DNA of 56,039 bases, from assembly GCA_035319625.1 (NCBI GenBank), contig DATHCH010000303.1, positions 1 to 56,039 of the forward strand. Direction: 5' to 3'. The translations under genes were made by a program, and so were the position numbers. Below are positions 10,045-31,902 of this stretch, piece by piece. This DNA comes from Thermodesulfobacteriota bacterium (GTDB lineage: Bacteria > Desulfobacterota > BSN033 > UBA1163). Each line of letters begins with the position of its first letter. The first letter of the stretch is position 1. The notes under the pieces were generated by a model. It was not told where the DNA came from and made no database searches. It saw only the letters and a list, made by a program, of their open reading frames with translations.

Positions 10045-10053
10045 TACATCCCA

Positions 10054-10083
10054 AGTGGTAAAAAGTGGGAAAAGGTGGTATGG
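10054..10083 (+). promoter_or_regulatory. MraZ operator-like triple direct repeat
   Basis: AGTGGTAAAA / AGTGGGAAAA / GGTGGTATGG: three GTGG[GT] boxes at exact 10-nt periodicity, between the -10 and the mraZ start. Confidence 0.55.
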
Positions 10084-10560: not shown

Positions 10561-10623
10561 TCGTGAATCGTGATTGGTGAATCGTGAACTTATCGGATCA
10601 CGAACTACGAGCCACGAATCACG
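10561..10623. repeat. word-repeat hairpin (CGTGA words), mraZ-rsmH spacer
   Basis: TCGTGAATCGTGATTGGTGAATCGTGAAC - loop - TCACGAACTACGAGCCACGAATCACG. Confidence 0.6.
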
Positions 10624-10628
10624 TCACT

Positions 10629-11510
10629 ATGGGATCACGACACATTTCCGTCATGGTTGAAGAGGTGATGGCATTTTTAAGATGTGAACCCGGTCATACT
10701 TATGTGGATGCGACTCTGGGAGGGGGCGGGCACGCTTTTGAAATTTTGAAGAGGTCCGCACCGGATGGAATGCTTATCGGAATGGAGTGGGATGAAGAGG
10801 CCCTGTCTGAGGCAAAAAAAACACTTCTATCCTTTGGTGATCGGGTCAAACTAATCCGAGAAAATTTCGTCCATCTTCCCGACCTGATGAAGGCCGAATC
10901 CGCCGATGGGATCCTGCTCGATTTAGGGCTTTCTTCCATTCAACTGGAAAGGGAGGAAAGGGGGTTTAGTTTCAAAGGAGAGGGCCCTCTGGATATGAGG
11001 ATGGACCAACGGATTGACGAGACAGCGGCTGACCTGGTCAATAACCTTTCGTCGGAAGAGCTGGAATCCATCCTCTTTCAATATGGAGAGGAAAGATGGG
11101 CCAAGCGAATTGTCAGAGCCCTCGTGGAGGAAAGAGAACGAGAACCCATCCGGACGACCCAGGCTTTAAGAAAGATTGTCCACCATGCCATCCCAAGACG
11201 ATTTCATTCCCGGAGAATTGACCCCGCCACAAGAACGTTTCAAGCCCTGCGTATCAGGGTGAATGAGGAATTGGAGAATTTGCAAAAAATACTGGAAACA
11301 GGATGGAAGATCTTAAAAAAGGGCGGACGGATGTGCGTCATCTCTTTTCACTCCCTCGAGGATCGAATGGTCAAGGAGACGTTCCGAGCCCTGGAGAAAC
11401 AGGAAAAGATGGTTATCCTGACGAAAAAACCCGTGACGCCGTCTGAAGAAGAACAGAAGAGAAATCCTCGATCCCGGAGTGCCAAACTGAGGTGTGCGGA
11501 GAGAATTTAA
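10629..11510 (+). CDS. rsmH: 16S rRNA (cytosine1402-N4)-methyltransferase RsmH
   Basis: HISVMVEEV start region and SAM motif YVDATLGGGGH. Start moved to 10629 because the track's upstream extension translates the hairpin repeat. Confidence 0.92.
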   Translation: MGSRHISVMVEEVMAFLRCEPGHTYVDATLGGGGHAFEILKRSAPDGMLIGMEWDEEALSEAKKTLLSFGDRVKLIRENFVHLPDLMKAESADGILLDLGLSSIQLEREERGFSFKGEGPLDMRMDQRIDETAADLVNNLSSEELESILFQYGEERWAKRIVRALVEEREREPIRTTQALRKIVHHAIPRRFHSRRIDPATRTFQALRIRVNEELENLQKILETGWKILKKGGRMCVISFHSLEDRMVKETFRALEKQEKMVILTKKPVTPSEEEQKRNPRSRSAKLRCAERI

Positions 11511-11511
11511 C

Positions 11512-11856
11512 ATGGCAAAGGCAATCGACAAAAATGGAGATCGAATCCTCTGGACAGAAGAAGATTCAAGGTCCGGGCCGAAAGGAATAAAACTAAATTC
11601 CCTCATCCTTTTCAGTCTCCTCACCCTTTTTTTCATCGGGGGATCCTTGTTCTATGTCTGGTCGAGAATTCAGGTGATCCAACTCGGATACGAAATTTCG
11701 AATGCCCTAAAGGAGGAGAGGGCCTTTACCGAAGCCAATAAGAAGTTGCGGCTGGAGATCGCTACGCTCAAGTCCTATGCGCGGATTGAAAAATTTGCTG
11801 CAGAGGAGTTGAGTATGTCTAAGCCTAAACCTGACCAGATGATTGTGATCCGATGA
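11512..11856 (+). CDS. ftsL: cell division protein FtsL-like
   Basis: Small bitopic protein. TM helix LILFSLLTLFFIGGSLFYVW followed by a coiled coil. Canonical position between rsmH and ftsI. Confidence 0.75.
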   Translation: MAKAIDKNGDRILWTEEDSRSGPKGIKLNSLILFSLLTLFFIGGSLFYVWSRIQVIQLGYEISNALKEERAFTEANKKLRLEIATLKSYARIEKFAAEELSMSKPKPDQMIVIR

Positions 11857-13826
11857 AACAGAAATCTATGAATTGGTTCAAGGTCCGGATCGTCTTTCTC
11901 TCGTGTCTCCTCTTCGTCTGTTTTGTATTCGTTATGGGGAGAATGTTTCAGCTTCAGGTGCTGAAAAAAGAGCAGCTCTATAAGCTGGCCGCACAACAGC
12001 AGCATGTTCAGATCCCCCTCGTTCCCAAACGAGGGACGGTTTACGATAGCAATGGAGATGAATTGGCAGTCAGCATTGAGGTCGAATCGGTTTATGTCGA
12101 TGCTCGGAAAGTCGTTGACGTAGAGAAAACAGCCAGAGAGCTTGCCTCGATTCTTCAGATCGATCGGGAGGAATTGAAACAGAGATTGAAGACCCATCGA
12201 CCTTTTGAATGGGTTCAAAGAAAAATCTCCTCAAAGGAAGCCGAACGGATCAAGGCCCTTCAGCTGCCCGGCGTTTCTTTCTTAAATGAGAACCGGCGTT
12301 TCTATCCGAATTCCCAACTGGCCGCTCATCTTATTGGTTTCGTAGGCCTCGATTCGAAAGGTCTGGAGGGAATAGAGTTCCAATACGACGCCTTGCTCAA
12401 CGGAGAGAACCGTGTATGGACGGCCGCCAGAGATGCCCTCGGCCGGCAAATTGCCATGGGCAACGTTCCCTTTGAAAAGGAGGATCATTACCGGAATATC
12501 GTCTTGACCGTCGACAAGGCCGTTCAGCATATCGCCGAGACAGAGCTGGATCGAGGTGTCGAAAGGTGGGGAGCGAAGGGAGGCATGGTTATTGCCATGG
12601 ATCCCTCGACCGGAAAGATCCTGGCCATGGCCTCCTACCCGACTTTTAATCCAAACCAGTTCATCCAGTACCGCTCCAAAAGCTGGAGGAACGAGGCTAT
12701 CTCTGATGTCTTTGAGCCCGGTTCTCTCTTTAAAGTTTTTCTCGCCGCGGCCGCCTTGGAGGAGCAGGTGGTTCGGCCCTCCGATTCCTTCTTTTGTGAG
12801 AATGGCTCGTACACGGTATATGACCGGACGATCCATGATACCTCCAAACATGGGTGGCTTACCTTTCAACAGATTCTCAAGTTCTCCAGTAATATCGGGG
12901 CATCGAAAGTGGGCGAGAAGATGGGCAGGGAGCGTTTCTACCGATATATCGCCGCCTTCGGATTCGGTGAGAAGACTCAAATTAATCTCCCGGGAGAAGG
13001 GAAAGGAATCGTTCACCACCCAAGGTATTGGCCGCCGGTTGCCCTGGATACCATCTCCTTCGGCCAGGGAATTTCAGTGACGGGGATTCAATTGGTGACC
13101 GCTCTGTCAGCCATTGCCAACGGCGGGTTCCTGATGAGGCCCTATGTTGTAGAGAAGACTCTGAATGAGAAAGGGGAGGTGGTCCAATCGTTTCAGCCGG
13201 AGACCATCAGGAAGGTCATTTCAGGGGCGACGGCTGAAAAGGTGACGGCACTACTTAAGACGACGACGGAGAAGGGAGGGACAGGGGAAGGAGCAGTGCC
13301 CGCAGGATACGACGTGGCCGGAAAAACGGGAACGGCGCAGAAGGTCGATTCTTTATTGGGCGGGTACTCCGAAACCCGCTACACCAGTAGTTTTATGGGA
13401 TTCGCCCCTTCCGGGGAACCTAAGCTCGCACTCTTAGTCGTCATTGATGAGCCGCAGGGAGGTAACTACGGAGGAGTGGTTGCTGCTCCGATATTTAAAG
13501 CGATCATGGAAAAGGTTCTTCCGTACCTCCATGTGGTCCCAAGGGGGACGATGATTGTGAAGAACGAACTCAACGCCGCGCCCCGAAAAGAGATGTCGGA
13601 AGCCCAACCCTTGATCGACGAGATCAAGGTGGGTAAGGGAGCAGAAACGGTTGTGATGCCAGACCTTAAGGGGCTGTCCATGCGGAATGCCTTGAGCCGC
13701 ATAGAAGGGCGGGGACTAATCATCAAGGTCTCAGGGAATGGAAAGGTCGTGGAGCAGACTCCCCGGCCGGGGACAGTGATCGAGAAAGGGGATATCTGTT
13801 TCTTGAAGTTTCGATCTTCATCGTAA
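11853..13826 (+). CDS. ftsI: peptidoglycan D,D-transpeptidase FtsI (class B PBP) with C-terminal PASTA domain
   Basis: SxxK (GSLFK), SxN (FSSNIG) and KTG (GKTGTAQ) motifs. The last ~60 aa, VVMPDLKGLSMRNALSRIEGRGLIIKVSGNGKVVEQTPRPGTVIEKGD, are PASTA-like. Confidence 0.93.
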   Translation: MKQKSMNWFKVRIVFLSCLLFVCFVFVMGRMFQLQVLKKEQLYKLAAQQQHVQIPLVPKRGTVYDSNGDELAVSIEVESVYVDARKVVDVEKTARELASILQIDREELKQRLKTHRPFEWVQRKISSKEAERIKALQLPGVSFLNENRRFYPNSQLAAHLIGFVGLDSKGLEGIEFQYDALLNGENRVWTAARDALGRQIAMGNVPFEKEDHYRNIVLTVDKAVQHIAETELDRGVERWGAKGGMVIAMDPSTGKILAMASYPTFNPNQFIQYRSKSWRNEAISDVFEPGSLFKVFLAAAALEEQVVRPSDSFFCENGSYTVYDRTIHDTSKHGWLTFQQILKFSSNIGASKVGEKMGRERFYRYIAAFGFGEKTQINLPGEGKGIVHHPRYWPPVALDTISFGQGISVTGIQLVTALSAIANGGFLMRPYVVEKTLNEKGEVVQSFQPETIRKVISGATAEKVTALLKTTTEKGGTGEGAVPAGYDVAGKTGTAQKVDSLLGGYSETRYTSSFMGFAPSGEPKLALLVVIDEPQGGNYGGVVAAPIFKAIMEKVLPYLHVVPRGTMIVKNELNAAPRKEMSEAQPLIDEIKVGKGAETVVMPDLKGLSMRNALSRIEGRGLIIKVSGNGKVVEQTPRPGTVIEKGDICFLKFRSSS

Positions 13827-13869
13827 CCCCCCTTCCCCCCCTTTGCTAAAGGGGAGATGGGAGGGATTA
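13824..13869. repeat. GC-rich nested palindrome (TAACCCCCC family); its first 3 nt are the ftsI stop codon
   Basis: TAACCCCCCTTCCCCCCCTTTGCTAAAGGGGAGATGGGAGGGATTA. Confidence 0.55.
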
Positions 13870-13886
13870 GGGCCACAATAACCCAT

Positions 13887-16813: not shown

Positions 16814-16816
16814 AGA

Positions 16817-17893
16817 ATGCTATATCATCTCCTTTATCCCCTTCACGGGTTATTTTCTTTCTTCAATGTCTTCCGGTATATCACCTTCAGGACCATTTGC
16901 TCTATTCTCACCGCTCTTCTCATCAGTTTTATCATCGGGCCCTGGCTGATCAAGAAGTTGAGGGCTTTTCAGATTCAACAGGTGGTGAGGAAGGATGTCC
17001 CTTCTCGTCACATGGTCAAGAATGGGACTCCTACAATGGGAGGAAGCCTTATTCTGGCCGGCATTCTCGTCCCAACCCTTTTCTGGTCCGACCTGACGAA
17101 TCCCCACGTCTGGATCGTTTTGGTGACCACTTTGGCGTTCGGCCTCCTCGGTTTTTGGGATGACTATAAAAAGCTCAGGGATAAGAAAGGCATCGGCATC
17201 CGGGCTCGATATAAGTTTCCTATTCAGGTGGGCATGGGACTTGTCGTCAGCTTCATCCTGTTCAACACGATTGATCACGATTCCAGGTTGATCTTTCCCT
17301 TTTTTAAGAAAGTGATGCCGGACCTTGGGGAATGGTACATTCTCTTTGCCATGTTCGTCATCGTGGGTTCGGCCAATGCGGTCAACCTGACTGACGGGTT
17401 GGACGGATTGGCCATCGGACCCGTGCTCATTGCAAGCGCCACCTTTATGCTCTTCTGCTATCTTGCGGGAAACTTCAAATTCGCCAGCTATCTCCAAATT
17501 CCTTTTGTCAGAGGAAGCGGTGAACTGACCATCTTGTGCGGGGCCCTGGTCGGTTCGGGTCTGGGGTTTCTCTGGTTCAATACATATCCAGCTCAGGTTT
17601 TTATGGGTGACGTAGGTTCTCTCTCCCTGGGGGCAGCCCTTGGGACGATTTCTGTGATCACGAAACAAGAGTTTCTCTTGGTCATTGTAGGCGGGATTTT
17701 TGTGATCGAGGCGCTTTCGGTCATCATCCAGGTCGTCTCTTACCAGGTTCGCAAGAAACGGGTCTTCAGAATGGCACCCATTCACCATCATTTTGAGTTG
17801 AAGGGCTGGGCCGAGCCAAAGATCATTGTCCGATTCTGGGTCATCGCCATTATCCTCGGACTGATTGCGATCAGCACATTGAAGTTGAGATAA
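16817..17893 (+). CDS. mraY: phospho-N-acetylmuramoyl-pentapeptide transferase
   Basis: Polytopic membrane protein with [13 protein letters not shown] and [10 protein letters not shown] motifs. Confidence 0.95.
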
Positions 17894-17896
17894 GAC

Positions 17897-17991
17897 ATGG
17901 AATATTGGAAGAATGGAATGCTGGAATATTGGGTTTAAATGCGAATAGGAATGTTTTTACCCATCATTCCAATATTCCATTATTCCAGAAT
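17897..17991. repeat. word-repeat hairpin (GGAATATTGG / CCAATATTCC words), mraY-murD spacer
   Basis: ATGGAATATTGGAAGAATGGAATGCTGGAATATTGGG - AT-rich loop - CCCATCATTCCAATATTCCATTATTCCAGAAT. Confidence 0.65.
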
Positions 17992-18028
17992 TAAGGTTTG
18001 ACATCGGCATTTTTTTAAGGAAATAGAG

Positions 18029-19372
18029 ATGGACCTTTTTGGCAAAAAAGTTTTGGTGGTGGGCATGGCCCGAACAGGAATAGCGACAGCGAAATTCCTT
18101 AAGTCAAAAGGATCTCTTGTCACCGCGACAGAGGTGAAGCCGGAAGGGGAGATGAAGGAGGCTGTTGAAGAGTTGAAGGGCCTGGATATTTCCACGGAAT
18201 GGGGGGGCCATCGAGCAGAGACCTTTCTAAAACAGGATATGATTGTCGTGAGCCCAGGCGTGGACCTGAGCATCGAGCCCATTCAGGCGGCCCTCAAGAA
18301 AAAAGTTCGGGTGATCAGCGAAATTGAACTCGCTTACCATTTCATCCAGGTCCCCATCATCTCGGTCACAGGAACCAACGGAAAGACAACGACCACCATG
18401 TTGATTGGCGAGATGCTGAAAGAGGATGGGAAAAAAGTAGGGGTGGGAGGTAATGTCGGAGAGCCACTCGTCCTTTTTGCAGACGGAAGAGATCGATGGG
18501 ACGTGTTGGTGGTTGAGATCTCCAGTTTTCAGTTAGAGGCCATCGAGGATTTTCGTCCCCGAATCGCTGTTCTTCTAAATATCACGGAGGATCATCTGGA
18601 CCGTTATCCCAGTTACACGGACTACATCAAGGCCAAGGTCAGGATTTTTGCGAATCAGAATTCCGGGGATCTGGCTGTTCTGAACAGAGATGATCCCATC
18701 GTGATGAAGTCCGGAGTGGGCGTGAGGGGGAGAAAAGTTTTTTTCAGCTTGAGCGATAAGCCTGACGAGGGCGCTTTCTCCGATGGCCAATCGATCTTCC
18801 TCAGACTCGCAGGGAAAAGAGAAAAGTATTCCTTGGCGAAAGCTCCCATGAAGGGAATCCACAATGTGGAGAATATGATGGCAGCCCTCACCGCGGCCAG
18901 GAGCTTCGGTTGCTCGAAAAGAGCGGTCCAGGCCGTTCTCAACCGGTTTGAAAGTCTCGAGCATCGCCTCGAATTTGTCCGGGAGGTCGGGGGGGTTCGC
19001 TTCTACGATGACTCCAAAGGAACGAATGTCGGTTCCGTGGTCAAATCTCTTCAGAGTTTTTCAGAACCCATCATCCTGATTGCGGGAGGGAAGGACAAAA
19101 ACGGGGATTTAGGTCCCCTTGAAGAATTGATTCGGAAACGGGTCAAACATTTGATCCTGATCGGAGAGGCGAGGGAGAGAATGAACCGGGAGCTTGGAGG
19201 GCTGACCGATACGGTCCTGGTGGAAACCATGGAAGAGGCTGTGCTCCTCGCCCACGAGAAAGCGAGAGCAGGAGAGGTGGTCCTCCTCTCACCGGCCTGT
19301 TCGAGCTTTGATATGTTCAAGGATTATAAGGAGAGGGGAAGAGTATTTAAGGAAGCCGTTTACCGCCTTTGA
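18029..19372 (+). CDS. murD: UDP-N-acetylmuramoylalanine--D-glutamate ligase
   Basis: N-terminal Rossmann VLVVGMARTGIA and VTGTNGKTTTT P-loop. Confidence 0.93.
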   Translation: MDLFGKKVLVVGMARTGIATAKFLKSKGSLVTATEVKPEGEMKEAVEELKGLDISTEWGGHRAETFLKQDMIVVSPGVDLSIEPIQAALKKKVRVISEIELAYHFIQVPIISVTGTNGKTTTTMLIGEMLKEDGKKVGVGGNVGEPLVLFADGRDRWDVLVVEISSFQLEAIEDFRPRIAVLLNITEDHLDRYPSYTDYIKAKVRIFANQNSGDLAVLNRDDPIVMKSGVGVRGRKVFFSLSDKPDEGAFSDGQSIFLRLAGKREKYSLAKAPMKGIHNVENMMAALTAARSFGCSKRAVQAVLNRFESLEHRLEFVREVGGVRFYDDSKGTNVGSVVKSLQSFSEPIILIAGGKDKNGDLGPLEELIRKRVKHLILIGEARERMNRELGGLTDTVLVETMEEAVLLAHEKARAGEVVLLSPACSSFDMFKDYKERGRVFKEAVYRL

Positions 19373-19375
19373 AAG

Positions 19376-19449
19376 GCGGAGTAAATAGTTCGGAGTAATG
19401 CGTTCGGAGCCTGGTTATAAATCAACACTCCGAACTCCAAACTCCGAAC
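19376..19449. repeat. word-repeat hairpin (TTCGGAG / CTCCGAA words), murD-ftsW spacer
   Basis: GGCGGAGTAAATAGTTCGGAGTAATGCGTTCGGAGC - loop - CACTCCGAACTCCAAACTCCGAAC. Confidence 0.65.
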
Positions 19450-19456
19450 ATAAGAT

Positions 19457-20557
19457 ATGAAGGGTAGAAAGAGGCTCGATTTTATCCTGCTGTTTGCAGT
19501 CCTTGCGCTCGTGGGAATCGGGATTGTGATGGTTTACAGCACCAGTGCAATCATCGCCGGGGATCGTTTCGGAGACCCTTACTACTTTCTGAAGAGGCAG
19601 GCACTTTACGCAGCGGTGGGTTTCGCTCTGATGCTCGTCATGATGTTCTTGCCCTATGAAATTCTAAGGCGCGTTGCCTATCCCATTCTCATCTTTTCCG
19701 TTCTTCTCTTGGTGGTCGTGTTGGTTCCGGGCATCGGGCACCGAAGCGGTGGGGCGATGCGTTGGCTGAAGATCCAGTCTTTCTCCTTTCAACCTTCGGA
19801 GCTTGCTAAGCTGGGTTTGGTGATCTTTCTTGCGTACCTGTTAGCTAAAAAAGAGGAGAAGATTCGGAGCTTCTCCTTCGGGTTTCTTCCCCCGGTTCTT
19901 CTCTCTGGTCTCGTCATCGCTTTGGTGATGAAGGAACCCGATTTCGGAGCAGCCTTTTTTCTCACCGTGATGGTCTTTCTCCTTCTCTTCGTCAGCGGTG
20001 CCAGGGTGATTTATATTGCGAGTGCCTTTTTGATCGCTATTCCAATGGCTTATGCCCTTTTAATGAATGTGGGATATCGTTATAAGAGGTTGATGAGTTT
20101 CATCCGGCCCTGGGAAGACCCCAGTGGCACGAGTTTCCAAATTATTCAATCCTTCCTCTCCTTTGGCTCTGGAGGCCTGTTCGGGTTAGGGCTGGGAGAA
20201 GGAAAGCAGAAACTCTTCTTCCTTCCCGCTCCCCACACAGACTTCATCTTTTCCGTCATCGGAGAGGAGTTGGGCTTGCTGGGCGCCATGGTGGTTGTGC
20301 TCCTCTTCTTCATTATAGCCCTCAGGGGTATCCAGATCGCGCTTTCCCTCGAGGATCGGTTTGGCGTCTATTTGGCGTTGGGGATTACGTTGATGATTTC
20401 CCTCCAAGCAGCGATCAACATGGGAGTTGTTTTAGGACTCCTCCCTACAAAAGGATTGACGCTCCCCTTCGTCAGCTACGGGGGGACATCCTTGATCGCC
20501 AATTTGGCTGGGGTGGGGATACTTCTTCACCTTTCGACCCATGCGGAACGACGATGA
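19457..20557 (+). CDS. ftsW: SEDS-family peptidoglycan glycosyltransferase FtsW
   Basis: Ten-TM-type profile with the LPAPHTDFIFSVIGEELG motif. Confidence 0.92.
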   Translation: MKGRKRLDFILLFAVLALVGIGIVMVYSTSAIIAGDRFGDPYYFLKRQALYAAVGFALMLVMMFLPYEILRRVAYPILIFSVLLLVVVLVPGIGHRSGGAMRWLKIQSFSFQPSELAKLGLVIFLAYLLAKKEEKIRSFSFGFLPPVLLSGLVIALVMKEPDFGAAFFLTVMVFLLLFVSGARVIYIASAFLIAIPMAYALLMNVGYRYKRLMSFIRPWEDPSGTSFQIIQSFLSFGSGGLFGLGLGEGKQKLFFLPAPHTDFIFSVIGEELGLLGAMVVVLLFFIIALRGIQIALSLEDRFGVYLALGITLMISLQAAINMGVVLGLLPTKGLTLPFVSYGGTSLIANLAGVGILLHLSTHAERR

Positions 20558-21642
20558 AGTGTGTGATCGCCGGAGGAGGTACAGGAGGTCATCTTTTCCC
20601 GGGCATGGCAATTGCCGAGGCATTCGTTGAAAGAGAGAAAGGGAACGAAGTTTTATTTATTGGAACGGAAAGGGGGATCGAAGCCAAAGTTTTGCCAGGA
20701 GGGAAATTTCCGCTGAAGATGATTCAAGCGAAACCCATTCAGGGAAAATCTCTTCTGGGAAAGGCTAAAGCCATCCGGAGCTTACCGATGGCCGTCTGCG
20801 AAGCTTATTCGATCCTGAAAGAGTTTCAACCCCATTTCGTATTGGGCGTAGGGGGATATGCCTCCGGGCCCACTCTGTTGGCCGCATTCCTTCTCGGAAT
20901 GAAGAGGGCCATCCAGGAACAGAACGTGATGCCTGGAATGACGAATCGGATTCTAAAATGGTTTAGCCAACGGATCTTCGTCTCCTTCGAAGAGGCGAAA
21001 AAATACTTCCCTGAGAAGAAAACCCTTGTGACTGGAAATCCGATCAGGAAAGAATTCCTTGCCCTTGTAAGGGAAGACAGGCGGTTGGTGAAGAAAGAGG
21101 ATCGATTTACCCTTCTTATCTTTGGAGGAAGTGCAGGGGCACACCGGATCAATCAGGCGATGATAGAAGCTCTGGATCACCTTCAAGGAATCAAGTCCTC
21201 CCTAAAAATCATCCATCAAACCGGAAAAGAAGATCTCGATTTTGTATCAAGGAAGTATCGAGAAAGAGGGTTTGAAGCGTTGGTCAGGCCTTTCTTTGAA
21301 GACCTCGCCTCCTACTACCAGATCTCTGATCTGGTCATCTGCAGGTCAGGAGCGAGTACCGTGGCTGAGCTGGCGGTCTGCGGAAAAGCCGCCCTCCTCA
21401 TCCCTTATCCTTATGCGGCCCATGACCATCAATTGATCAACGCCAAGAAATTAGTGGATCTGGGTGCGGCCAAAATGATTTTAGATCAGGAGTTAAGTGG
21501 AGGAACCATCGTCCCAATGATCCTTCGTTTTTACGAGCATCCGGAGGAGCGTGTTAGAATGGAAGAGGCGATTCGACGGCTGGGGAGACCAAGGGCAGCA
21601 GAAGAGATAGTGGATCATTGTTATGCGTTGGTTGCGGGATAA
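20554..21642 (+). CDS. murG: undecaprenyldiphospho-muramoylpentapeptide beta-N-acetylglucosaminyltransferase
   Basis: GGTGGHLFPG motif and C-terminal ICRSGASTVAELA. Confidence 0.93.
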   Translation: MKCVIAGGGTGGHLFPGMAIAEAFVEREKGNEVLFIGTERGIEAKVLPGGKFPLKMIQAKPIQGKSLLGKAKAIRSLPMAVCEAYSILKEFQPHFVLGVGGYASGPTLLAAFLLGMKRAIQEQNVMPGMTNRILKWFSQRIFVSFEEAKKYFPEKKTLVTGNPIRKEFLALVREDRRLVKKEDRFTLLIFGGSAGAHRINQAMIEALDHLQGIKSSLKIIHQTGKEDLDFVSRKYRERGFEALVRPFFEDLASYYQISDLVICRSGASTVAELAVCGKAALLIPYPYAAHDHQLINAKKLVDLGAAKMILDQELSGGTIVPMILRFYEHPEERVRMEEAIRRLGRPRAAEEIVDHCYALVAG

Positions 21643-21643
21643 A

Positions 21644-21772
21644 ATGTCAAATGCCGAAGTTCAAGGTCAAAGGAGATTGAAAGTCCGAAGTTTCAAATAC
21701 CAAATTTAGACACAGAGTATTTTGGCATTTGGCAATCATTTGACATTTGAATTTTGACATTTGAACTTCAGG
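21644..21772. repeat. word-repeat hairpin (TCAAA / TTTGA words, ~130 nt), murG-murC spacer
   Basis: ATGTCAAATGCCGAAGTTCAAGGTCAAAGG...TTTCAAATACCAAA - loop - TTTGGCATTTGGCAATCATTTGACATTTGAATTTTGACATTTGAACTTCAGG. Confidence 0.65.
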
Positions 21773-21779
21773 TTTAAGA

Positions 21780-23150
21780 ATGTACCGAAGAGGGAAGATC
21801 CAGCATATTCATTTTGTGGGCATCGGCGGAATCGGCATGAGCGGGATTGCCGAGGTGTTACTCAATCTCGGTTACCATATCAGCGGGTCCGACATCAAGG
21901 AGACAGAGGTGACCCGAAGACTGCGGTCTTTGGGGTGCGAAATTTCCTACGGCCACCGGAGGGAGAATTTGAAAGAGGCGGACGTGGTGGTCATCTCCTC
22001 AGCCATCCGGCCACAAAACCCCGAGGTCAAGGCCGCCGAAGAGAGACTCATCCCCGTCATCCCAAGGGCAGAGATGCTGGCAGAGCTGATGCGAATGAAA
22101 ATCGGGATTGCGATCGCAGGGACCCACGGCAAGACGACGACCACCTCCCTCATTTCGACTGTTTTGGCGGCGGGCGGTCTGGATCCCACGGTTGTGATCG
22201 GCGGGCGGCTCAACAGCATCGGAAGCAATGCGAGGCTGGGGCAGGGTGAATTCCTGGTGGCCGAAGCCGATGAGAGCGATGGCTCCTTTCTCAAACTGAT
22301 GCCCACCATTGCCGTGGTGACCAACATCGACCCGGACCATCTTGATTATTATAAAGGCATCGACGAGATCAAAGAGACTTTCCTCTGCTTTTTGAACAAG
22401 ATTCCATTTTTCGGATTGGCCGTGCTCTGCCTCGATCATCCGAACATCCAGAGCCTTCTTCCGAGGTTGAAGAAACGCTTTACCACTTACGGGTTAACCC
22501 CGCAGGCTGACTTCCAGGCCAAGGAGATTATATTCGAAGGGCTCTCTAGCTCCTTCGATGTGATCCGCCAGCGTCAGGAAATAGGCAGACTGAGCCTCCA
22601 GATGCCGGGGCTCCACAATGTCTACAATGCCCTCGCGGCCTTGGCCACCGCTTTTGAACTGGATATTCCCTTCCGGGTCGTCCAGGAAACGCTGCGCGAT
22701 TTTAGCGGGATTCAGAGACGGTTCCAGATCAAAGGAGAGAAGAAGGGAGTCCTCGTTGTGGATGATTATGGTCATCATCCTGTGGAGATTATGGCCACGC
22801 TGAAGGCAGCACGGACCGGCTGGGGGAAAAGAATCATCGCCGTATTTCAGCCTCATCGGTACACGAGAACGCAGGCCCTGTTCAAGGAATTTCTCACGGC
22901 TTTTTATGACGCCGATGTCCTCATTCTTACCGAGATCTACCCCGCAGGAGAGGATCGGATAGAAGGCGTGGAATCGAAAACCCTCTTTGAGGGACTCCGG
23001 GAGTACGGCCATAAAGACGTGACTTATTTAGCCGATAAGAGGGAAATCGTCGAGCATCTTCTCCGTATTATCTCTCCGGGGGATCTGGTGATCACCCTGG
23101 GAGCAGGAGACATCTGGCAGGTTTCAGAGGAGTTAGTGAAACAATTATAA
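21780..23150 (+). CDS. murC: UDP-N-acetylmuramate--L-alanine ligase
   Basis: [14 protein letters not shown] and [11 protein letters not shown] motifs. Confidence 0.93.
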
Positions 23151-23152
23151 GC

Positions 23153-23228
23153 AGTTCGGAGTGATGAGTTCGGAGTTCGGAGAAATATATAGAAACTCCG
23201 AACTCAAAACCCCTAACTCCGAACTCAG
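23153..23228. repeat. word-repeat hairpin (GTTCGGAG / CTCCGAAC words), murC-murB spacer
   Basis: AGTTCGGAGTGATGAGTTCGGAGTTCGGAG - aaatatataga - AACTCCGAACTCAAAACCCCTAACTCCGAACTC. Same word as the murD-ftsW hairpin but not the same sequence. Confidence 0.65.
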
Positions 23229-23239
23229 ACGCGAAGCGG

Positions 23240-24145
23240 ATGCAAAAGGACTACAGAAAATGGGCGTCGGGGTTGATCAAGGGAAAGGTTCTTTTCGATG
23301 CGCCGATGAGACAGTTTACATCGATGCAGGTGGGAGGCCCTGCGGACAGCCTTTTGTTTCCCAGAAATGTGGACGAGCTGAAAAAGGTAGTCCGTTACGC
23401 AAGGAGAAAAAAAATTCCGTTCTTGATTTTAGGGAGGGGGACAAATTTAGTGGTGAGGGATAGAGGGGTTCGTGGATGGGTAATCAGTTTAGCCAAAGGG
23501 ATGAAAAAGATTCAGATGGACGGAGAGGTCGTAGACGCGGAAGCGGGCCTCTCCCTGCAACGGCTGGTCCAATTCTCCGTCCGGAAGGGACTCACGGGGC
23601 TCGAACCCTTCTTCGGTATTCCCGGAACGGTGGGAGGGGGTTTGGCGATGAACGCCGGAGCCTGGGGTGCCGAATTGAAGGATGTGCTTCTTTCGGTGAC
23701 GTTGATGAAGGAAGACGGAGAAATTGTGAAGAGGTCCCGTTCGAGGCTTCGATTCTCTTATCGAGGGTTGGCCATCCCCTCTTCTTGGATTATTCTCAAG
23801 GGCCGATTTAAGCTGAAGACGGGCAAGAAGGAAGAAATTCTTGAACGGGTGAAATGTTATTCGGAGATGAGGAAGAAAAAGCAACCCTTGGACTATCCCA
23901 GTGCGGGGTCCATTTTCAAAAATCCGAAAGAAGGCCCCGCAGGAAAATGGATTGAAGAAGCTGGGCTGAAGGGGTTTCGGATAGGTCGGGCGATGGTTTC
24001 AGAGCGGCATGCCAATTTTATCATCAATCTGGGAAAGGCCAAGGCCGAAGAGGTGATCCGGTTGATGGAGTTCATTGAAAAACTGATTCATGAAGAAAAG
24101 GGCATCTCCCTTGAAAGGGAGGTGAAGGTGGTAGGCGAGGCGTGA
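23240..24145 (+). CDS. murB: UDP-N-acetylenolpyruvoylglucosamine reductase
   Basis: FAD-binding domain (GRGTNLVV) and C-terminal SERHANFIIN. Confidence 0.92.
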   Translation: MQKDYRKWASGLIKGKVLFDAPMRQFTSMQVGGPADSLLFPRNVDELKKVVRYARRKKIPFLILGRGTNLVVRDRGVRGWVISLAKGMKKIQMDGEVVDAEAGLSLQRLVQFSVRKGLTGLEPFFGIPGTVGGGLAMNAGAWGAELKDVLLSVTLMKEDGEIVKRSRSRLRFSYRGLAIPSSWIILKGRFKLKTGKKEEILERVKCYSEMRKKKQPLDYPSAGSIFKNPKEGPAGKWIEEAGLKGFRIGRAMVSERHANFIINLGKAKAEEVIRLMEFIEKLIHEEKGISLEREVKVVGEA

Positions 24146-24147
24146 TG

Positions 24148-24207
24148 CGGATTTCGGAATGCAAACTCCGAAATAAATTTTGCATGATGGGTTCGTCACT
24201 CACGAAC
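24148..24207. repeat. short interleaved hairpins, murB-ddl spacer
   Basis: TTTCGGA..TCCGAAA interleaved with ATGCAAA..TTTTGCAT, then GTTCGT-cactc-ACGAAC. Confidence 0.5.
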
Positions 24208-24223
24208 GATGAAAATTACCCAG

Positions 24224-24323
24224 GATTATCCTCCCCCTTAGTGGGGGAGGAGCGAGGTGGGGGTGAATATGGTATGGCCCCCCTCACCCCCGCCCTCTCC
24301 CGCGAGGGGAGAGGGGGATAATC
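24224..24323. repeat. 100-bp GC-rich triple-hairpin element closed by GATTATC / GATAATC
   Basis: CCTCCCCC-ttag-TGGGGGAGG; GGTGGGGGTGA...TCACCCCCGCC; CCCTCTCCC-gcga-GGGGAGAGGG. Confidence 0.6.
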
Positions 24324-24366
24324 GAGTTATTTTCGACGTAAACGGTGGGGTTTTGGCGCCAGGGAG

Positions 24367-25311
24367 ATGAAAGAGCCATCGGTCAAGAAGAAGAAAATAG
24401 GGGTGATGATGGGCGGTCTTTCCAGGGAGAGAGAGATTTCCCTGAAGACGGGCAAGGCCATCTTGAAGGCTCTTACGGAGAAGGGGTATACGGCGGCCCC
24501 GATCGATGTGGGAGACGATATAGCAGAAAAATTGGTCAAAGAAAAGATTGAGTGTGCCTTTTTGGCTCTGCACGGAAGATTTGGAGAAGATGGAACCGTT
24601 CAGGGGATGTTGGAGTTGATGAGAATTCCCTACACCGGGTCAGGAGTTCTGGCCAGCGCTTTGGCCATGCACAAAGTCATGTCCAAGAAATTCTTCCTTT
24701 GTGAAAAGATTCCAACTCCTCGTTATGAGGTTTTTCAACGAGAGAAGATCAAGGAAGATCTGCCTGAAAGAATTTCCCTTCCCCTGCCGGTCGTGGTCAA
24801 ACCGGCCAGAGAGGGGTCGACGATCGGTGTTTCAATCGTTCGGGAGGATGAAGAGCTGGGCCCTGCGCTGACGAGGGCAGCAGAATACGATGAGGAGATA
24901 TTGGTAGAAGAATTTATGAAAGGGAGGGAGATCACCGTCGGCATTCTTGAAAACATTCCTCTACCCGTCATTGAGATCGCCCCCAAGAGCGGCTTCTACG
25001 ATTACCATTCTAAATATACAAAGGGTGAGACTCAGTACATTCTCCCGGCTCGGATTCCGAGAGAAAAGTACCTCTATGCGCAAGAGATAAGCCTCAGAGC
25101 CTTTCAAGAGCTGGATTGTTCTGGTGTGGCGAGGGTCGATCTGATGACCGATGAAAATGAAAATCCGTTTGTGGTTGACATCAACACCATGCCCGGCATG
25201 ACCGAGACGAGTCTCTTGCCCATGGCGGCCAATTATGCCGGCATTCCATTTGAAGATTTAGTTGAACGCATTTTGTTAGGGGCTTCTTTAAAAATGGGGG
25301 GTGGAACGTAG
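24367..25311 (+). CDS. ddl: D-alanine--D-alanine ligase
   Basis: ATP-grasp fold. ALHGRFGEDGTVQG and VDINTMPGMTETSLLP motifs. Confidence 0.93.
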   Translation: MKEPSVKKKKIGVMMGGLSREREISLKTGKAILKALTEKGYTAAPIDVGDDIAEKLVKEKIECAFLALHGRFGEDGTVQGMLELMRIPYTGSGVLASALAMHKVMSKKFFLCEKIPTPRYEVFQREKIKEDLPERISLPLPVVVKPAREGSTIGVSIVREDEELGPALTRAAEYDEEILVEEFMKGREITVGILENIPLPVIEIAPKSGFYDYHSKYTKGETQYILPARIPREKYLYAQEISLRAFQELDCSGVARVDLMTDENENPFVVDINTMPGMTETSLLPMAANYAGIPFEDLVERILLGASLKMGGGT

Positions 25312-25326
25312 TAACTGGAGGGTGGA

Positions 25327-25400
25327 AAGTGGAAAGTAGAACGTGGAAGTTAAATGTTTAGAAACCACTATCCACGCTCAACGCTCCACATTCGAGGGGT
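25327..25400. repeat. word-repeat hairpin (GTGGAAA / CCAC words), ddl-ftsQ spacer
   Basis: GGAGGGTGGAAAGTGGAAAGTAGAACGTGGAAG - loop - AACCACTATCCACGCTCAACGCTCCACATTCG. Confidence 0.6.
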
Positions 25401-25401
25401 G

Positions 25402-26235
25402 ATGGGAGAGACAGTTAAAGTACGAGAGGGAAAGTTTCTCCGACCAAAAGCGGGAAGGGAAGAGAAAGGAGCGGGAAAATTTCTGAGGATCTTGAAAAAA
25501 ACAATCCGGGTGGCTTTTCACCTTCTTCTTCTCTCTTTTTTCCTCCTGGTCAGCCATTGGATTTATGTCCGCCTCTTGGGGGATCCCTGTTTTCGAGTGA
25601 GGGAAGTCGAGGTGGAAGGAGGTCGAAAGATTCCGAAAGAGACTCTTCTCTCTCTGACGGTGATCGATGGAATGCCCAATCTCTTCTCGGTCAAGTTGAA
25701 GGAGGTTGTCAAGCGATTGGAATCCCATCCCTGGATTGAGCAGGTCCGGGTGATGAAGGTCTTTCCCCATAAGATATTGATTCAGATAGAAGAGAAGAAA
25801 CCGATGGCTATCATTCAATTGGAAGAGCTTTACTATATCGATACCAAAGGGGAGATATTTTCTCCCGTAGGAGATAGAGATGAATACAACTATCCCTATC
25901 TCACTGGTTTGACCCGCCGGGTTTTGGAAAAAGATCCAGTGGAAGCGAAGTACCTGATCGCCAAGGCCCTGGAGATTTTGAGAATCGCGGGACAAGAAAA
26001 ATTGCCTCCCCTTGAGGAAATATCTGAGATCCATATGGAAAAGGTGTATGGAATCGATTGTATTACCAAAGCAGAAGGGGTGGAGGTCAAAATGGGATGG
26101 GACGACTTTGGAGAGAAGCTGCAACGATTGTCTCTCATCTGGGCGGACCTTCGGAAGAGAGGGTTTTCAGCGGCTTCGATTGACTGCAGTGACTTGAAAC
26201 GAATGCTGGTTAAAAGGGTCCCCTCAGGGGGTTGA
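25402..26235 (+). CDS. ftsQ: cell division protein FtsQ
   Basis: TM helix VAFHLLLLSFFLLVSHWIYV, then POTRA (VREVEVEGGRKIPKETLL) and the FtsQ domain. Start moved past the hairpin. Confidence 0.85.
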   Translation: MGETVKVREGKFLRPKAGREEKGAGKFLRILKKTIRVAFHLLLLSFFLLVSHWIYVRLLGDPCFRVREVEVEGGRKIPKETLLSLTVIDGMPNLFSVKLKEVVKRLESHPWIEQVRVMKVFPHKILIQIEEKKPMAIIQLEELYYIDTKGEIFSPVGDRDEYNYPYLTGLTRRVLEKDPVEAKYLIAKALEILRIAGQEKLPPLEEISEIHMEKVYGIDCITKAEGVEVKMGWDDFGEKLQRLSLIWADLRKRGFSAASIDCSDLKRMLVKRVPSGG

Positions 26236-26251
26236 AAGGAGGTGATGAAAG

Positions 26252-27478
26252 GTGGCAAAGAAGGATTCGTTGGTAGTCGGGTTGGATATCGGGACGACCA
26301 AGATCTGTACCGTGGTCGGAGAAATTTCTGACAGTCAGGTCAACATCATCGGCCTCGGGACGTTTCCATCGAAGGGATTGCGAAAAGGTGTGGTCATCAA
26401 TATCGAGAGCACCGTCCATTCGATCAAAAAGGCGGTTGAAGAAGCGGAGTTGATGGCAGGATACCATCTCACCTCAGTCTATGCAGGAATCGCGGGCGGG
26501 CATATCAAAGGGATTAACAGCCACGGGGTGATCGCCGTAAAAAACAGAGAGATCGGTCCGAATGATGTGAAGCGAGTGATCGATGCCGCCAGCGCTGTGG
26601 CCATGCCCATGGATCGAGAGGTGATTCACATCATTCCTCAGGAATTCATCGTAGATGATCAGGATGGAATCAAAGATCCGGTGGGGATGTCAGGGGTACG
26701 ACTGGAGGGAAGAGTTCATATCGTCACCGGTGCGATTACCTCTGCCCAGAACATCATTAAATGCGCCAACAAGGCCGGGCTGGATGTGGACGACATTGTT
26801 TTGGAGCAGTTGGGGTCGAGCGAAGCGGTCCTCACTTCTGAGGAGAAGGATCTGGGAGTGGCCATCATCGATATCGGAGGCGGAACGACGGATCTGGTGA
26901 TCTTTTCAAACGGTGCCATCAAACATACATCTGTTTTTTCCCTGGCAGGAAGTCATATCACAAACGATATCTCGATGGGACTTCGGACACCGGTGGAGGA
27001 AGCAGAGAAGATCAAAATAAGATACGGATGTGCCCTGACTTCTTTGGTTCGGAAGGATGAAACCATTGAAGTTCCCAGTGTGGGGGGCAGGAAGCCTCGT
27101 GTCCTCTCCAGGCAGACCTTGGCGGAGATTGTCGAACCCAGGGTCGAGGAAATTCTCACCTTAGTTCATAACGAAGTGGTCAGGACGGGATTTGCCAATC
27201 TGCTCGCCTCTGGAATTGTCTTCACCGGCGGGAGCGCCATCCTGGAAGGTGTTCCTGAGTTGGCCGAGCAGATTTTTAATCTGCCTGTTCGGAGAGGGGA
27301 GCCCGTCGGCATCGGAGGATTGGTAGATCTGGTCGCGAGTCCAATGTATGCAACCGGAGTGGGTCTGGTTCTTTATGGAAGTCGAAAGAAAGGGCAGAGT
27401 CGGTTTAAGGTAGGCGAGGGGAACATCTTCAGCAAAGTCACGCATCGGATGAGGGAATGGATTGAAGAATTTTTCTAA
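26252..27478 (+). CDS. ftsA: cell division protein FtsA
   Basis: Actin-fold motif VVGLDIGTTKICTVVGE and IDIGGGTTD. GTG start with AAGGAGGTGA SD. Confidence 0.93.
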   Translation: MAKKDSLVVGLDIGTTKICTVVGEISDSQVNIIGLGTFPSKGLRKGVVINIESTVHSIKKAVEEAELMAGYHLTSVYAGIAGGHIKGINSHGVIAVKNREIGPNDVKRVIDAASAVAMPMDREVIHIIPQEFIVDDQDGIKDPVGMSGVRLEGRVHIVTGAITSAQNIIKCANKAGLDVDDIVLEQLGSSEAVLTSEEKDLGVAIIDIGGGTTDLVIFSNGAIKHTSVFSLAGSHITNDISMGLRTPVEEAEKIKIRYGCALTSLVRKDETIEVPSVGGRKPRVLSRQTLAEIVEPRVEEILTLVHNEVVRTGFANLLASGIVFTGGSAILEGVPELAEQIFNLPVRRGEPVGIGGLVDLVASPMYATGVGLVLYGSRKKGQSRFKVGEGNIFSKVTHRMREWIEEFF

Positions 27479-27494
27479 CGACCGGAGGATTCAT

Positions 27495-27590
27495 GGGGTC
27501 AAGGGTTCAAGGGGCCAAGTGGAACGCATAGGAACAAAACCAAATGATCACGAAACACTCGAACCCGTGAACCCTCGAATCCTTGAACAC
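27495..27590. repeat. word-repeat hairpin (CAAGGG/TTCAAGG vs CCTTGAA/CCCTCGA words), ftsA-ftsZ spacer
   Basis: GGGGTCAAGGGTTCAAGGGGCCAAGTGG - loop - CACTCGAACCCGTGAACCCTCGAATCCTTGAACAC. Confidence 0.6.
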
Positions 27591-27611
27591 TTTAACTAAA
27601 GGAGGAAGGAT

Positions 27612-28817
27612 ATGATCGAATTCGACGAAAATAAAAATTTAGCCGCCAAGGTCAAGATCATCGGAATTGGAGGAGGAGGGAACAATGCCCTGAATACCAT
27701 GATTTCCTACCAGCTCTCCGGTGTTGAGTTTATCGCAGCCAATACCGATGCGCAGGCGTTGGCGGCAAATATGGCCCCCATGAAATTGCAATTGGGCGAG
27801 AACTTGACCAAGGGTCTGGGAGCCGGAGCCAATCCGGAGATAGGAAGGAAGGCTGCTCTTGAGGATGTGGAGAAAATTCGTGAGGCCCTAAAAGGGTCAG
27901 ACATGGTCTTCATCACATCCGGGTTGGGCGGCGGGACCGGAACGGGCGGCGCGCCGGTGATTGCCGAAGTGGCGCGTGAAATGGGTGCCCTCACCGTGGC
28001 GATCGTGACCAAACCTTTCCATTTCGAAGGAAAGAAGAGGATGAGCCAGGCGGAAGAAGGGTTGGCTAACTTGAAGATGACGGCGGATGCCCTCATCACC
28101 ATCCCGAACCAGCGGCTCCTCGGCATCAGCGGGAAGAGCATGACGCTGCTGGAGGCTTTTAAAAGGGCAGATGAGGTCCTCTATCATGCTGCGAAAGGGA
28201 TCTCGGATATCATCGTCGGCCATGGAATTATCAATCTGGACTTTGCCGATGTCCGGACCGTCATGGTTGAGACAGGAATGGCATTGATGGGGACGGGAAT
28301 TGCTTCGGGCGAGAATCGATCGCTAGAAGCTGCTCAAAGAGCGATTTCCAGCCCTCTCCTGGAAGATATCACGATCGAAGGGGCTCGGGGCCTTCTCATC
28401 AACATCACCGGAGGAGAGAATATGACCCTCAGCGAAATCAACGAGGCAACGACTCTCGTTCAGAAGGAAGCCCATGAAGATGCCACGGTGATCTGGGGGA
28501 TGGTGGTTGACAAAACCATGAAGGAAGAGATTCGGGTGACCGTGATCGCTACGGGTTTCGGAAAGAAGGAGGATAAGAGAACAGCGCAGTTTAGGAAAAT
28601 AGCTCCTATCTCATTTGGCCTACGGGAGCAAAATAAGGACATGCCACGGTTCTCCTTCGGCGACAGAGAGAATAATAGGGATATCCCCGCTTTTATGAGG
28701 AGGGGAAAGGCCAGCGAGCGTTTCGATGAGCTCAAATTGGATCCGCCGTCGGATTTCTCTATGGAGGATGAGGATCGTTTTGACATCCCCACTTTCTTAA
28801 GAAAACAGGCCGACTGA
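27612..28817 (+). CDS. ftsZ: cell division GTPase FtsZ
   Basis: GGGTGTGGAP tubulin signature, NTDAQAL, and the conserved C-terminal peptide DIPTFLRKQ. Confidence 0.96.
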   Translation: MIEFDENKNLAAKVKIIGIGGGGNNALNTMISYQLSGVEFIAANTDAQALAANMAPMKLQLGENLTKGLGAGANPEIGRKAALEDVEKIREALKGSDMVFITSGLGGGTGTGGAPVIAEVAREMGALTVAIVTKPFHFEGKKRMSQAEEGLANLKMTADALITIPNQRLLGISGKSMTLLEAFKRADEVLYHAAKGISDIIVGHGIINLDFADVRTVMVETGMALMGTGIASGENRSLEAAQRAISSPLLEDITIEGARGLLINITGGENMTLSEINEATTLVQKEAHEDATVIWGMVVDKTMKEEIRVTVIATGFGKKEDKRTAQFRKIAPISFGLREQNKDMPRFSFGDRENNRDIPAFMRRGKASERFDELKLDPPSDFSMEDEDRFDIPTFLRKQAD

Positions 28818-28821
28818 ATTT

Positions 28822-28925
28822 AGTGGGTGGCCAGTGGTAGAGGGTGAGTGGTAAAAAAAGTTACATGAGTAGTTAAAATTCTGTTATATTGAATTTGCCA
28901 CTTTCTACATTCCACTATCCACTTA
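28822..28925. repeat. word-repeat hairpin (GTGG / CCAC words) after ftsZ
   Basis: AGTGGGTGGCCAGTGGTAGAGGGTGAGTGG - AT-rich loop - GCCACTTTCTACATTCCACTATCCACTTA. Confidence 0.6.
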
Positions 28926-28930
28926 CGAAG

Positions 28931-30643: not shown

Positions 30644-30677
30644 GCATCCCAGGATCCTCGCCCCTAATCGAGGCATT

Positions 30678-30840: not shown

Positions 30841-30965
30841 TTGTTTGGGAGGGGTTTCTATTATTACGACAAAGTCTCTGGTGGGAGACGCGAGGGGATG
30901 GGCGTTTTGATCGTTGGATAATTGGAATTTATTTGGAATTTGGGATTTTGATCGGGAGATACAAA

Positions 30966-31840: not shown

Positions 31841-31902
31841 CAAAATTGTTTCTAACACGGGGTGAGAAGGAGTCTCGGAATTTGCAGTCCATTTTAAGTA
31901 AA

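Follow-up and report, generated by a model that had tools for sequence, protein, structure and literature searches.

Word-repeat hairpins in the spacers of a Thermodesulfobacteriota dcw operon and their turnover among relatives

Hairpins in the spacers of the dcw cluster

The stretch of DNA analysed in this work, hereafter the window, is the 56,039-nucleotide contig DATHCH010000303.1 of a Thermodesulfobacteriota bacterium (assembly GCA_035319625.1), and it carries on its plus strand a complete division and cell wall (dcw) cluster, made up of mraZ, rsmH, ftsL, ftsI, murE, murF, mraY, murD, ftsW, murG, murC, murB, ddl, ftsQ, ftsA and ftsZ, with all 16 gene identities backed by Pfam. The features in question are imperfect hairpins, built from short tandemly repeated words, which occupy the spacers between these genes. 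Relatives were gathered by MurC-based scans of genome and metagenome collections, in which the window groups with uncultured Thermodesulfobacteriota/Syntrophaceae metagenome-assembled genomes. The loci (labelled L followed by a number) comprise a clade sample of 33 loci with MurC at least 80% identical and a distant sample of 128 further loci; the comparison covers the dcw loci, and it is there that the recurrence of families was measured.

The minimum free energy (MFE) of each spacer was compared with that of 100 dinucleotide shuffles, with the resulting z-scores given as sense/antisense and the hairpin coordinates taken from the MFE fold. The original prediction, made from the letters of the window, was that nine spacers each hold a hairpin with tandem words as the left arm and complementary words as the right arm. 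A single long imperfect hairpin of 60-120 nt was found in seven of the nine named spacers, where it beats the shuffled controls with z-scores of -3 to -6 on at least one strand; reading and folding both bear out that in all seven the arms consist of tandem words, with units of 7-8 nt, facing complementary words (Table 1). The remaining two spacers depart from the prediction, since murB-ddl holds a composite structure and the ddl-ftsQ array has no complementary arm. It is also true, as predicted, that genes with overlapping stop and start codons have no hairpin, but trivially so, because no spacer exists to hold one.

A sliding 100-nt MFE scan did not separate intergenic from coding sequence and was dropped as noise, and the per-spacer shuffles were used instead, together with a word-based detector. 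Under the strict criterion of the latter (a 6-mer occurring twice and its reverse complement twice, within at most 250 nt), five elements were found in the window, four of them in dcw spacers, compared to an expectation of 0.1 per shuffled window; four of the five matches are fully intergenic and the fifth is a single-word match within a gene. Among spacers of at least 50 nt, z-scores below -2 were obtained for 62% in the clade (33 loci) and 19% in distant taxa. Median spacer lengths in the clade and in distant taxa are, respectively, 94 and 33 nt for mraY-murD, 91 and 4 nt for murD-ftsW, 92 and 15 nt for murG-murC, and 77 and 40 nt for murC-murB, the medians overall spanning 77-133 nt in the clade and 4-40 nt in distant taxa. 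Tandem arrays are present in 57% of clade spacers, compared to 1.8% of shuffles and 0.6% of coding segments, and their period is 7 in 49 of 69 cases, 8 in nine and 9 in six. Arrays and hairpins occur together (odds ratio 3.9, p = 9e-4), with a significant hairpin in 54 of the 69 array-bearing spacers. The architecture is not peculiar to this lineage, since it is present also in dcw spacers of Methylomirabilota, Binatia and Geobacteraceae loci. In conclusion, with the corrections given above, the observation is real and lies far beyond chance.

In the 79 hairpin-bearing spacers, the base of the stem begins, in the median, 4 nt past the stop codon and ends 12 nt short of the next start codon, with an unpaired remainder of 19 nt (median), which is about the length of an empty spacer. 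Such a geometry is expected from a palindrome inserted into a short spacer. Stop and start codons would stay close to each other in the folded mRNA, and this would preserve translational coupling.

As far as known classes of elements are concerned, an Rfam 15 scan of the whole window gave no match at the gathering threshold. Intrinsic (Rho-independent) terminators were ruled out, because no U tract follows the stems; specifically, none of the plus-strand spacer hairpins appeared in the terminator scan and their 3' flanks are devoid of T runs. In addition, the counts of terminator and promoter consensus sequences over the cluster are not above those in shuffles. Repetitive extragenic palindromic (REP) sequences and REPINs were likewise ruled out, the arms being tandem non-palindromic words such as TTCGGAG and CGTGAAT. 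CsrA-type GGA motifs as a source of the words were dropped, because many families have no GGA.

Sequence families and turnover of the elements among relatives

The words had been predicted to differ between spacers, so that the shared property would be architecture and not sequence. The architecture is indeed common to the spacers, but across the 33 loci the words sort into families of conserved sequence, such as TTCGGAG, CCAAGCACCAAT and GTCAAAT/GTTCAAA, and within the window itself the murD-ftsW and murC-murB hairpins share the TTCGGAG family. Profile searches located the TTCGGAG family (consensus AATAGTTCGGAGTRATGAGTTCGGAG ... ACTCCGAACTCCGAACTCCGAAC) in the murC-murB, murD-ftsW, ftsI-murE and mraY-murD spacers across genomes, with two copies in the window, and the CCAAGCACCAAT family (consensus CCAAAT.CCAAGCACCAATATCCAAATAAATCCCAA ... 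TTGGGATTTGG) in murG-murC, murD-ftsW, ftsA-ftsZ and ddl-ftsQ, a single family thus recurring in up to four different dcw spacers. Similarly, the family of the window's murG-murC hairpin was found in murD-ftsW of L106, L089 and L099, and the CGTGAAT words of the window's mraZ-rsmH hairpin recur in L007 and, in the spacer after ftsZ, in L001 and L003.

A pairwise classification of spacers as homologous or replaced was abandoned, its threshold lying too near the 99th percentile of shuffles, and explicit alignments were used. The proposed check of orthologous spacers for presence and absence revealed empty, filled and refilled sites among the relatives. Specifically, the TTCGGAG element of murD-ftsW has orthologous copies in L109, L098 and L028, other families stand in its place in L106, L001 and L086, and the spacer is empty (8-20 nt) in L096, L101, L102 and L004. 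On mraY-murD, other families are present in L106, L001 and L084 and the spacer of L004 is only 14 nt long, and the murC-murB spacer of L096 measures 0 nt. In the murB-ddl spacer of L081, related TGCGGA/TTCGGA arrays occupy the same place as the small word hairpin which opens this spacer in the window.

The closest relative, L106, has a 4-fold site divergence of about 0.15 from the window, evenly spread as far as the gene ends. Three of its spacers (mraY-murD, murD-ftsW and murC-murB) hold families other than those of the window, and in three other spacers a filled site faces an empty or nearly empty one. Its murB-ddl spacer is only 55 nt long and devoid of the composite hairpin found in the window, and its ddl and ftsQ genes overlap, with no array. 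Only the murG-murC hairpin (93% identical) and the ftsA-ftsZ hairpin (95% identical, and 85% in L081, with changes mostly in the loop) are shared with the window. Because the divergence of L106 is low and even to the gene ends, the elements turn over quickly in comparison with point substitution, and recombination of large flanks does not account for this. All together, these comparisons show that spacers holding elements are only about 10-20 nt long in the relatives without them, and that gain, loss and replacement of elements proceed much faster than synonymous saturation.

The protein ends next to the spacers were also found to vary. In L001, L084, L085, L106, L089 and L099, in which certain elements are present, the reading frame of murD runs into the left arm of the hairpin, and MurD terminates in extra residues, ...RLSTKSQAPISK or ...RICTG, as compared to the common ...VFKEAVRRL; therefore, elements remodel protein C-termini. 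In the window, just upstream of the TTCGGAG element, a small perfect hairpin, CCGCCTTTGAAAGGCGG (19363-19379), holds the stop codon of murD in its loop, and this small hairpin is conserved in both L109 and L098.

An independent ENA contig with the identical FtsA, L161 (98.7% identical), was considered for a strain-level comparison over window positions 19938-35794. It shows eight differences over 21.4-34.9 kb and far denser ones, at about 5-10% of aligned positions, in the last 1-1.5 kb at either contig end, which suggests recombination tracts or a chimeric assembly. With the differences concentrated at the contig ends and the middle virtually identical, L161 is uninformative on spacer evolution and was set aside.

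Origin and possible roles of the hairpins

The explanation that we favour, and hold to have somewhat better than even chances, is that the hairpins belong to families of small palindromic dispersed repeats made from inverted heptanucleotide arrays, which originate and are turned over at the DNA level and are tolerated, or perhaps exploited, in an essential operon. The copies would be non-coding palindromes of about 60-130 bp, the two arms of which are inverted arrays of tandem 7-8 nt units. The arrays would be born and remodelled through slippage of whole words, and the one at ddl-ftsQ looks like a duplication of the neighbouring 3' end of ddl; the complementarity of the arms would be kept by hairpin-templated repair or by selection, and whole elements would spread among spacers by some copy mechanism. 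Persistence in an essential operon could be accounted for in two ways: a palindromic insert without a U-tail would not halt transcription, and the folded mRNA would leave stop and start codons about 19 nt apart, with expression and translational coupling surviving. Should the host gain from them, for instance by protection of 3' ends or by processing, such a gain would be secondary. Among the three roles put forward in the original prediction, the footprint of a hairpin-shaped mobile element is the best supported, by the families shared across spacers, the empty sites and the quick replacement; there are, however, many families rather than one, and neither a target-site duplication (TSD) nor a transposase was found.

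The two strands were compared with respect to their folding. Raw folds of the sense strand are more stable by 2.4 kcal/mol and contain 483 G-U pairs, compared to 310 on the antisense strand. In the composition-controlled z-scores this asymmetry is gone (mean z of -2.77 for sense and -2.94 for antisense, p = 0.15), and it was rejected as evidence of RNA-level selection; the spacers are G-rich on the sense strand. The arms are thus complementary in a Watson-Crick symmetric manner, which inverted repeats of DNA-level origin would be expected to show, and nothing in these data requires RNA-level selection or function.

Several observations weigh against dispersed repeats turned over at the DNA level. 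Retained orthologous hairpins diverge less in their stems (84/924 = 9.1%) than at unpaired positions (115/693 = 16.6%), a count subject to ascertainment since it takes in alignable pairs only, and both values lie below the divergence of 4-fold sites. Likewise, copies of the TTCGGAG family are about 85% identical between genomes in which about 55-65% of 4-fold sites differ, and so slow a divergence looks like host-level purifying selection rather than what selfish or neutral sequence would show. In the two modelled families every copy has the same orientation relative to transcription, and this uniformity could reflect function. No TSDs were detected flanking the elements, and no consistent direct repeats at 17 copies of two families, with the limit that element ends are fuzzy and short TSDs could escape; moreover, no transposase or RAYT-like gene was present among the 30 window proteins scanned. 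Finally, the existence of at least ten sequence families is hard to reconcile with sequence-specific transposases.

The stem and orientation data are also what the main rival explanation draws upon, namely that selection maintains the hairpins as RNA structures of the polycistronic dcw mRNA, acting as 3'-end protectors, as RNase III/E processing sites or as stop-start holders for translational coupling, the words drifting while the arms go on pairing. We consider such a primary RNA function to be a serious candidate, but an unlikely one. It would account for the conservation of stems over loops, and by a wide margin over 4-fold sites, and for hairpins which span nearly exactly the distance from stop to start codon. 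It would also suit the greater stability of the raw sense folds, yet the two strands are equally structured once composition is controlled. On the post-ftsZ orthologues the loop is conserved and the arms change by lineage to different, still complementary words, the sense strand being more stable in ten of ten; covariation by RNAalifold was, however, not demonstrated either for these orthologues or for the TTCGGAG family, because the tandem words shift register, and the apparent compensatory change of TTCGGAG/CTCCGAA to TTAGGG/CCCTAA in L028 was recognised by eye only. Moreover, word sequence is conserved within families beyond what pairing asks for, and in the closest relative entire families have been exchanged at three spacers, and others are without elements. 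L004 and L096 cope with spacers of just 0-20 nt, and no individual hairpin is therefore essential. Nonetheless, the stem data, the conserved post-ftsZ loop with its changing arms and the uniform orientation leave real room for a host-level function.

In addition, the loop of the post-ftsZ hairpin contains, at positions 28879-28891, a conserved extended -10-like motif, TTCTGTTATATTG, which takes the form of TGTTATAGT, TGTGATAGAAT and similar sequences in relatives (carriers are L001, L002, L003, L004, L028, L093, L096, L098 and L110). This motif may be a promoter for the downstream radical-SAM gene, in which case both arms would be present only in transcripts reading through from ftsZ.

A further hypothesis, which we judge to be distinctly unlikely, is that the elements are moved by no sequence-specific transposase but generated and renewed by an architecture-driven DNA process (heptamer slippage with hairpin-templated strand switching, or a structure-specific enzyme), which keeps inventing word families. 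Selection would retain them in essential operons because a folded hairpin leaves only about 19 nt between stop and start codons and so preserves translational coupling; the elements would then represent a self-renewing, sequence-agnostic operon spacer.

Even less probable is an origin in situ without mobility, by which heptamers would slip in each spacer and be copied in inverted form by template switching, with shared words due to convergence or to gene conversion between neighbouring spacers. The ddl-ftsQ spacer lends itself to this hypothesis, as its 45-nt insert (GGAGGGTGGAAAGTGGAAAGTAGAAC...), absent from L106, nearly replicates the final 20 nt of ddl (GGGGGGTGGAACGTAGTAAC) and has 7 nt duplicated within it; this array looks like a local tandem duplication, a proto-array without its partner arm. 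Comparably, murD-ftsW of L087 holds 11 tandem GGCAG(A/T)A units with only a short partner, and from these two arrays we infer that whole-word slippage is part of the story. The missing TSDs would agree with an origin in situ, and the predominance of heptamers fits the slippage-prone unit length reported for bacterial repeats, heptamers being the commonest long simple-sequence-repeat unit in bacteria according to work cited at second hand in PMC4679880. Convergence is nevertheless unlikely, because the similarity within families covers 70-130 nt, non-repetitive loop included, across spacers and genomes.

Finally, it is very improbable that an abundant protein of the integration host factor (IHF)/HU type, with an architectural or global regulatory role, binds DNA at the paired arrays, as proposed for the same architecture in Geobacter metallireducens (PMC2700814): strand symmetry at the DNA level and words conserved within families would be compatible with it, but ten or more unrelated words could be served only by many proteins or by a single one that binds irrespective of sequence, the 7-nt period does not fit the DNA helical repeat, the sites lie mostly inside the operon and not at promoters, and the elements are dispensable in close relatives.

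Known repeat systems, other features and significance

The architecture of inverted heptamer pairs has already been published at least twice, in G. metallireducens and in Xanthomonas; the value of the present case lies in the unusually dense packing of the elements, their many families and a comparative series in which orthologous sites are filled, refilled or empty. In G. metallireducens, Aklujkar et al. 2009 (PMC2700814) described intergenic pairs of sites on opposite strands, composed of 3-5 tandem units of 7-9 nt at variable spacing and drawn as hairpins; classes 1-3, with units GTTGCTYN, TCTCCGTS[Y] and MTYCTGA, count 8-24 pairs each, one pair lies inside an operon, between proB and proA, and the authors, who guessed at IHF/HU binding, labelled them "predicted global regulator binding sites". 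The elements of the window resemble classes 1-3 in their tandem 7-9 nt units, complementary second array and intergenic position, and class 4 (CCYTC repeats) corresponds to the G/C-rich CCCCTC/GAGGGG hairpins; the words and the order are different, and here at least ten families occur in one operon, with their turnover documented.

In Xanthomonas, Rehm et al. 2015 (PMC4692102) reported 70-75 convergent pairs of intergenic GGGAATC heptamer arrays per genome, capable of forming stem-loops or cruciforms, the length of the arrays varying by species and the single or paired type being preserved. In that system each genome has a single G-rich word, which was studied for its formation of G-quadruplexes, in contrast to the many words found here, most of which are unable to form a G-quadruplex. 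The short tandemly repeated repetitive (STRR) sequences of cyanobacteria are also arrays of heptamers, found in intergenic spacers, those inside operons included: the hupS-asr0689 spacer of Nostoc PCC 7120 contains TTGTCAG repeats followed by CTGAC-type ones, and the hypF-hypC spacer contains ATTGCGAATTGCGAATTG (PMC2408588). These belong to another phylum and are mostly direct arrays of a few genome-wide words, with hairpin pairing not a defining trait. Our elements share with REPIN/REP sequences and their RAYT transposases (Bertels & Rainey 2011, PMC3116915) the small non-coding nature, the long hairpin of two inverted units, the intergenic position, families that cross species and the expectation of no TSD; the REP unit, however, is a 20-40 bp imperfect palindrome, and its families are typically 1-3, far fewer than here. 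In Beggiatoaceae, tandem TAACTGA heptamers lie just upstream of the starts of many operons, in 169 direct sets and one indirect set (MacGregor 2015, PMC4679880). This is a single word, almost always in direct arrays, so that no hairpin results.

MITEs (miniature transposable elements with inverted repeats), such as the Correia elements of Neisseria, are hairpin-forming, non-coding, polymorphic for presence and absence, intergenic and co-transcribed with the genes. Our elements, too, were seen to be present in some relatives and absent from others, and to have copies at non-homologous sites, but the defined terminal inverted repeats, TSDs and related autonomous insertion sequences that distinguish MITEs were not found in the dcw loci and the window; with no TSD found, a MITE is not demonstrable.

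Table 1. Repeat features of the window (z-scores as sense/antisense)
Feature	Position	Strand	z-score	Words and remarks
mraZ-rsmH hairpin	10562-10623	+	-3.0/-2.4	left CGTGAAT-type heptamers, right ATTCACG/GATCACG words
mraY-murD hairpin	17894-17998	+	-3.5/-4.8	TGGAATAT-type words, period 8
murD-ftsW hairpin	19388-19449	+	-5.2/-5.1	TTCGGAG family (A2)
murG-murC hairpin	21647-21764	+	-3.3/-4.9	GTCAAAT/GTTCAAG words
murC-murB hairpin	23151-23226	+	-6.3/-6.1	TTCGGAG family (A2), second copy in the window
murB-ddl small word hairpin	24146-24184	+		39 nt, at spacer start; TGCGGATTTCGGAATGC ... CTCCGAAAT
murB-ddl composite hairpin	24188-24361	+		G/C-rich, CCCCTC/GAGGGG; a different element class, not a word hairpin
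ddl-ftsQ tandem array	25317-25349 (spacer feature 25312-25353)	+	-1.8/+0.3	GTGGAAA words, no inverted partner
ftsA-ftsZ hairpin	27484-27593	+	-1.9/-4.1	GGGTTCAA-type words, period 8
post-ftsZ hairpin	28823-28926	+	-4.9/-1.3	left GTGGGTG/AGTGG, right CCAC words; conserved TGTTATA-type loop motif
Long hairpin outside the cluster	30647-30850			no significant word periodicity
Composite in convergent intergenic region	31689-31901	.		ACCCTAAA/ATCCAAAA words paired with GGGTTTT/GAGTTT words; nested G/C-rich hairpin
G/C-rich hairpin outside the cluster	36565-36647	+		CCTGCC...GGTAGGC, within direct array of ATTGCGA-like words
Word hairpin outside the cluster	38162-38336	+		ATCAGG / CCTGGTA/CCTGAT words; upstream of REC-LpxC gene
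G/C-rich polypyrimidine/polypurine hairpins	13827-13856, 24188-24361, 31712-31758, 40303-40335, 41908-41945, 51283-51322			also in spacers of L002, L081 and L099

The same design had been predicted at three sites outside the cluster. It was recovered at the word hairpin upstream of the REC-LpxC gene, and not at the other two, where a long hairpin shows no word period and a G/C-rich hairpin sits between direct ATTGCGA-like copies. Further word arrays were noticed at 1615-1693 (GTGGCAA/GTGGAAA-type words with a weak partner), at 46241-46504 (GACGCGGA words, with the partner 250 nt off) and at 51239-51270 (four CGGATTG/CGAATTA units without a partner, adjoining the start of a PAS/GAF protein gene).

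A second class of repeats consists of G/C-rich polypyrimidine/polypurine hairpins (CCCCTCCCC ... GGGGAGGGG), which are found in numerous intergenic regions, frequently nested within word arrays or adjoining them. In addition, a family of mini-hairpins with CCTGCC...GGCAGG ends is represented at 36581-36632 and 38338-38377 of the window and in spacers of L085, L086, L001 and L106. Its copies sit inside word arrays, after ...TTTG or ...GCG and before GAAT or AAT. In murG-murC of L106, a clean 31-nt G/C-rich insertion, GCCTGCGCGAAGCTGCTTCGGCGAAGGCAGG, interrupts the right arm (between window positions 21749 and 21750), with no obvious TSD. These placements suggest that the mini-hairpins are an actively mobile element targeting word arrays. 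Small dispersed repeats of cyanobacteria are said to insert into heptamer arrays, and the G/C-rich mini-hairpins found here likewise lie in word arrays.

Upstream of mraZ, at 10053-10083, the sequence AAGTGGTAAAAAGTGGGAAAAGGTGGTATGG contains three GTGGN boxes with a 10-nt period; this is a direct repeat and not a hairpin, and we take the boxes to resemble the repeated boxes of the MraZ operator in the E. coli system. Outside the cluster, the gene at 38454-39821 encodes an N-terminal response-regulator receiver (REC) domain (residues 6-114) joined to an LpxC deacetylase domain (residues 182-447), an arrangement that is unusual for the committed step in lipid A synthesis. The acyl-CoA dehydrogenase open reading frame (ORF) at 40371-41512 ends after 48 of 150 positions of the C-terminal domain and is followed by 280 nt, apparently non-coding and unstructured; a frameshift, a pseudogene or a sequencing error is likely.

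From a practical point of view, the elements create spurious N-terminal ORF extensions in annotation, as had been anticipated. For rsmH the Pfam match begins at residue 19 of the GTG ORF, and the true ATG is therefore placed at 10629; for the radical-SAM gene after ftsZ, the conserved start is at 28931.

Pairs of inverted heptamer repeats are known in Geobacter, Xanthomonas and cyanobacteria. The clade described here represents a compact natural experiment, in which the spacers of one essential syntenic operon are empty, filled or refilled across dozens of relatives, and in which the rates of gain, loss and word change, the constraint on stems and loops and the secondary insertion of mini-hairpins are all measurable. 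If the hairpins set the ratios of division proteins or keep translational coupling, operon regulation would gain a further, new layer; should they be selfish, they would show how much palindromic DNA an essential operon can absorb.

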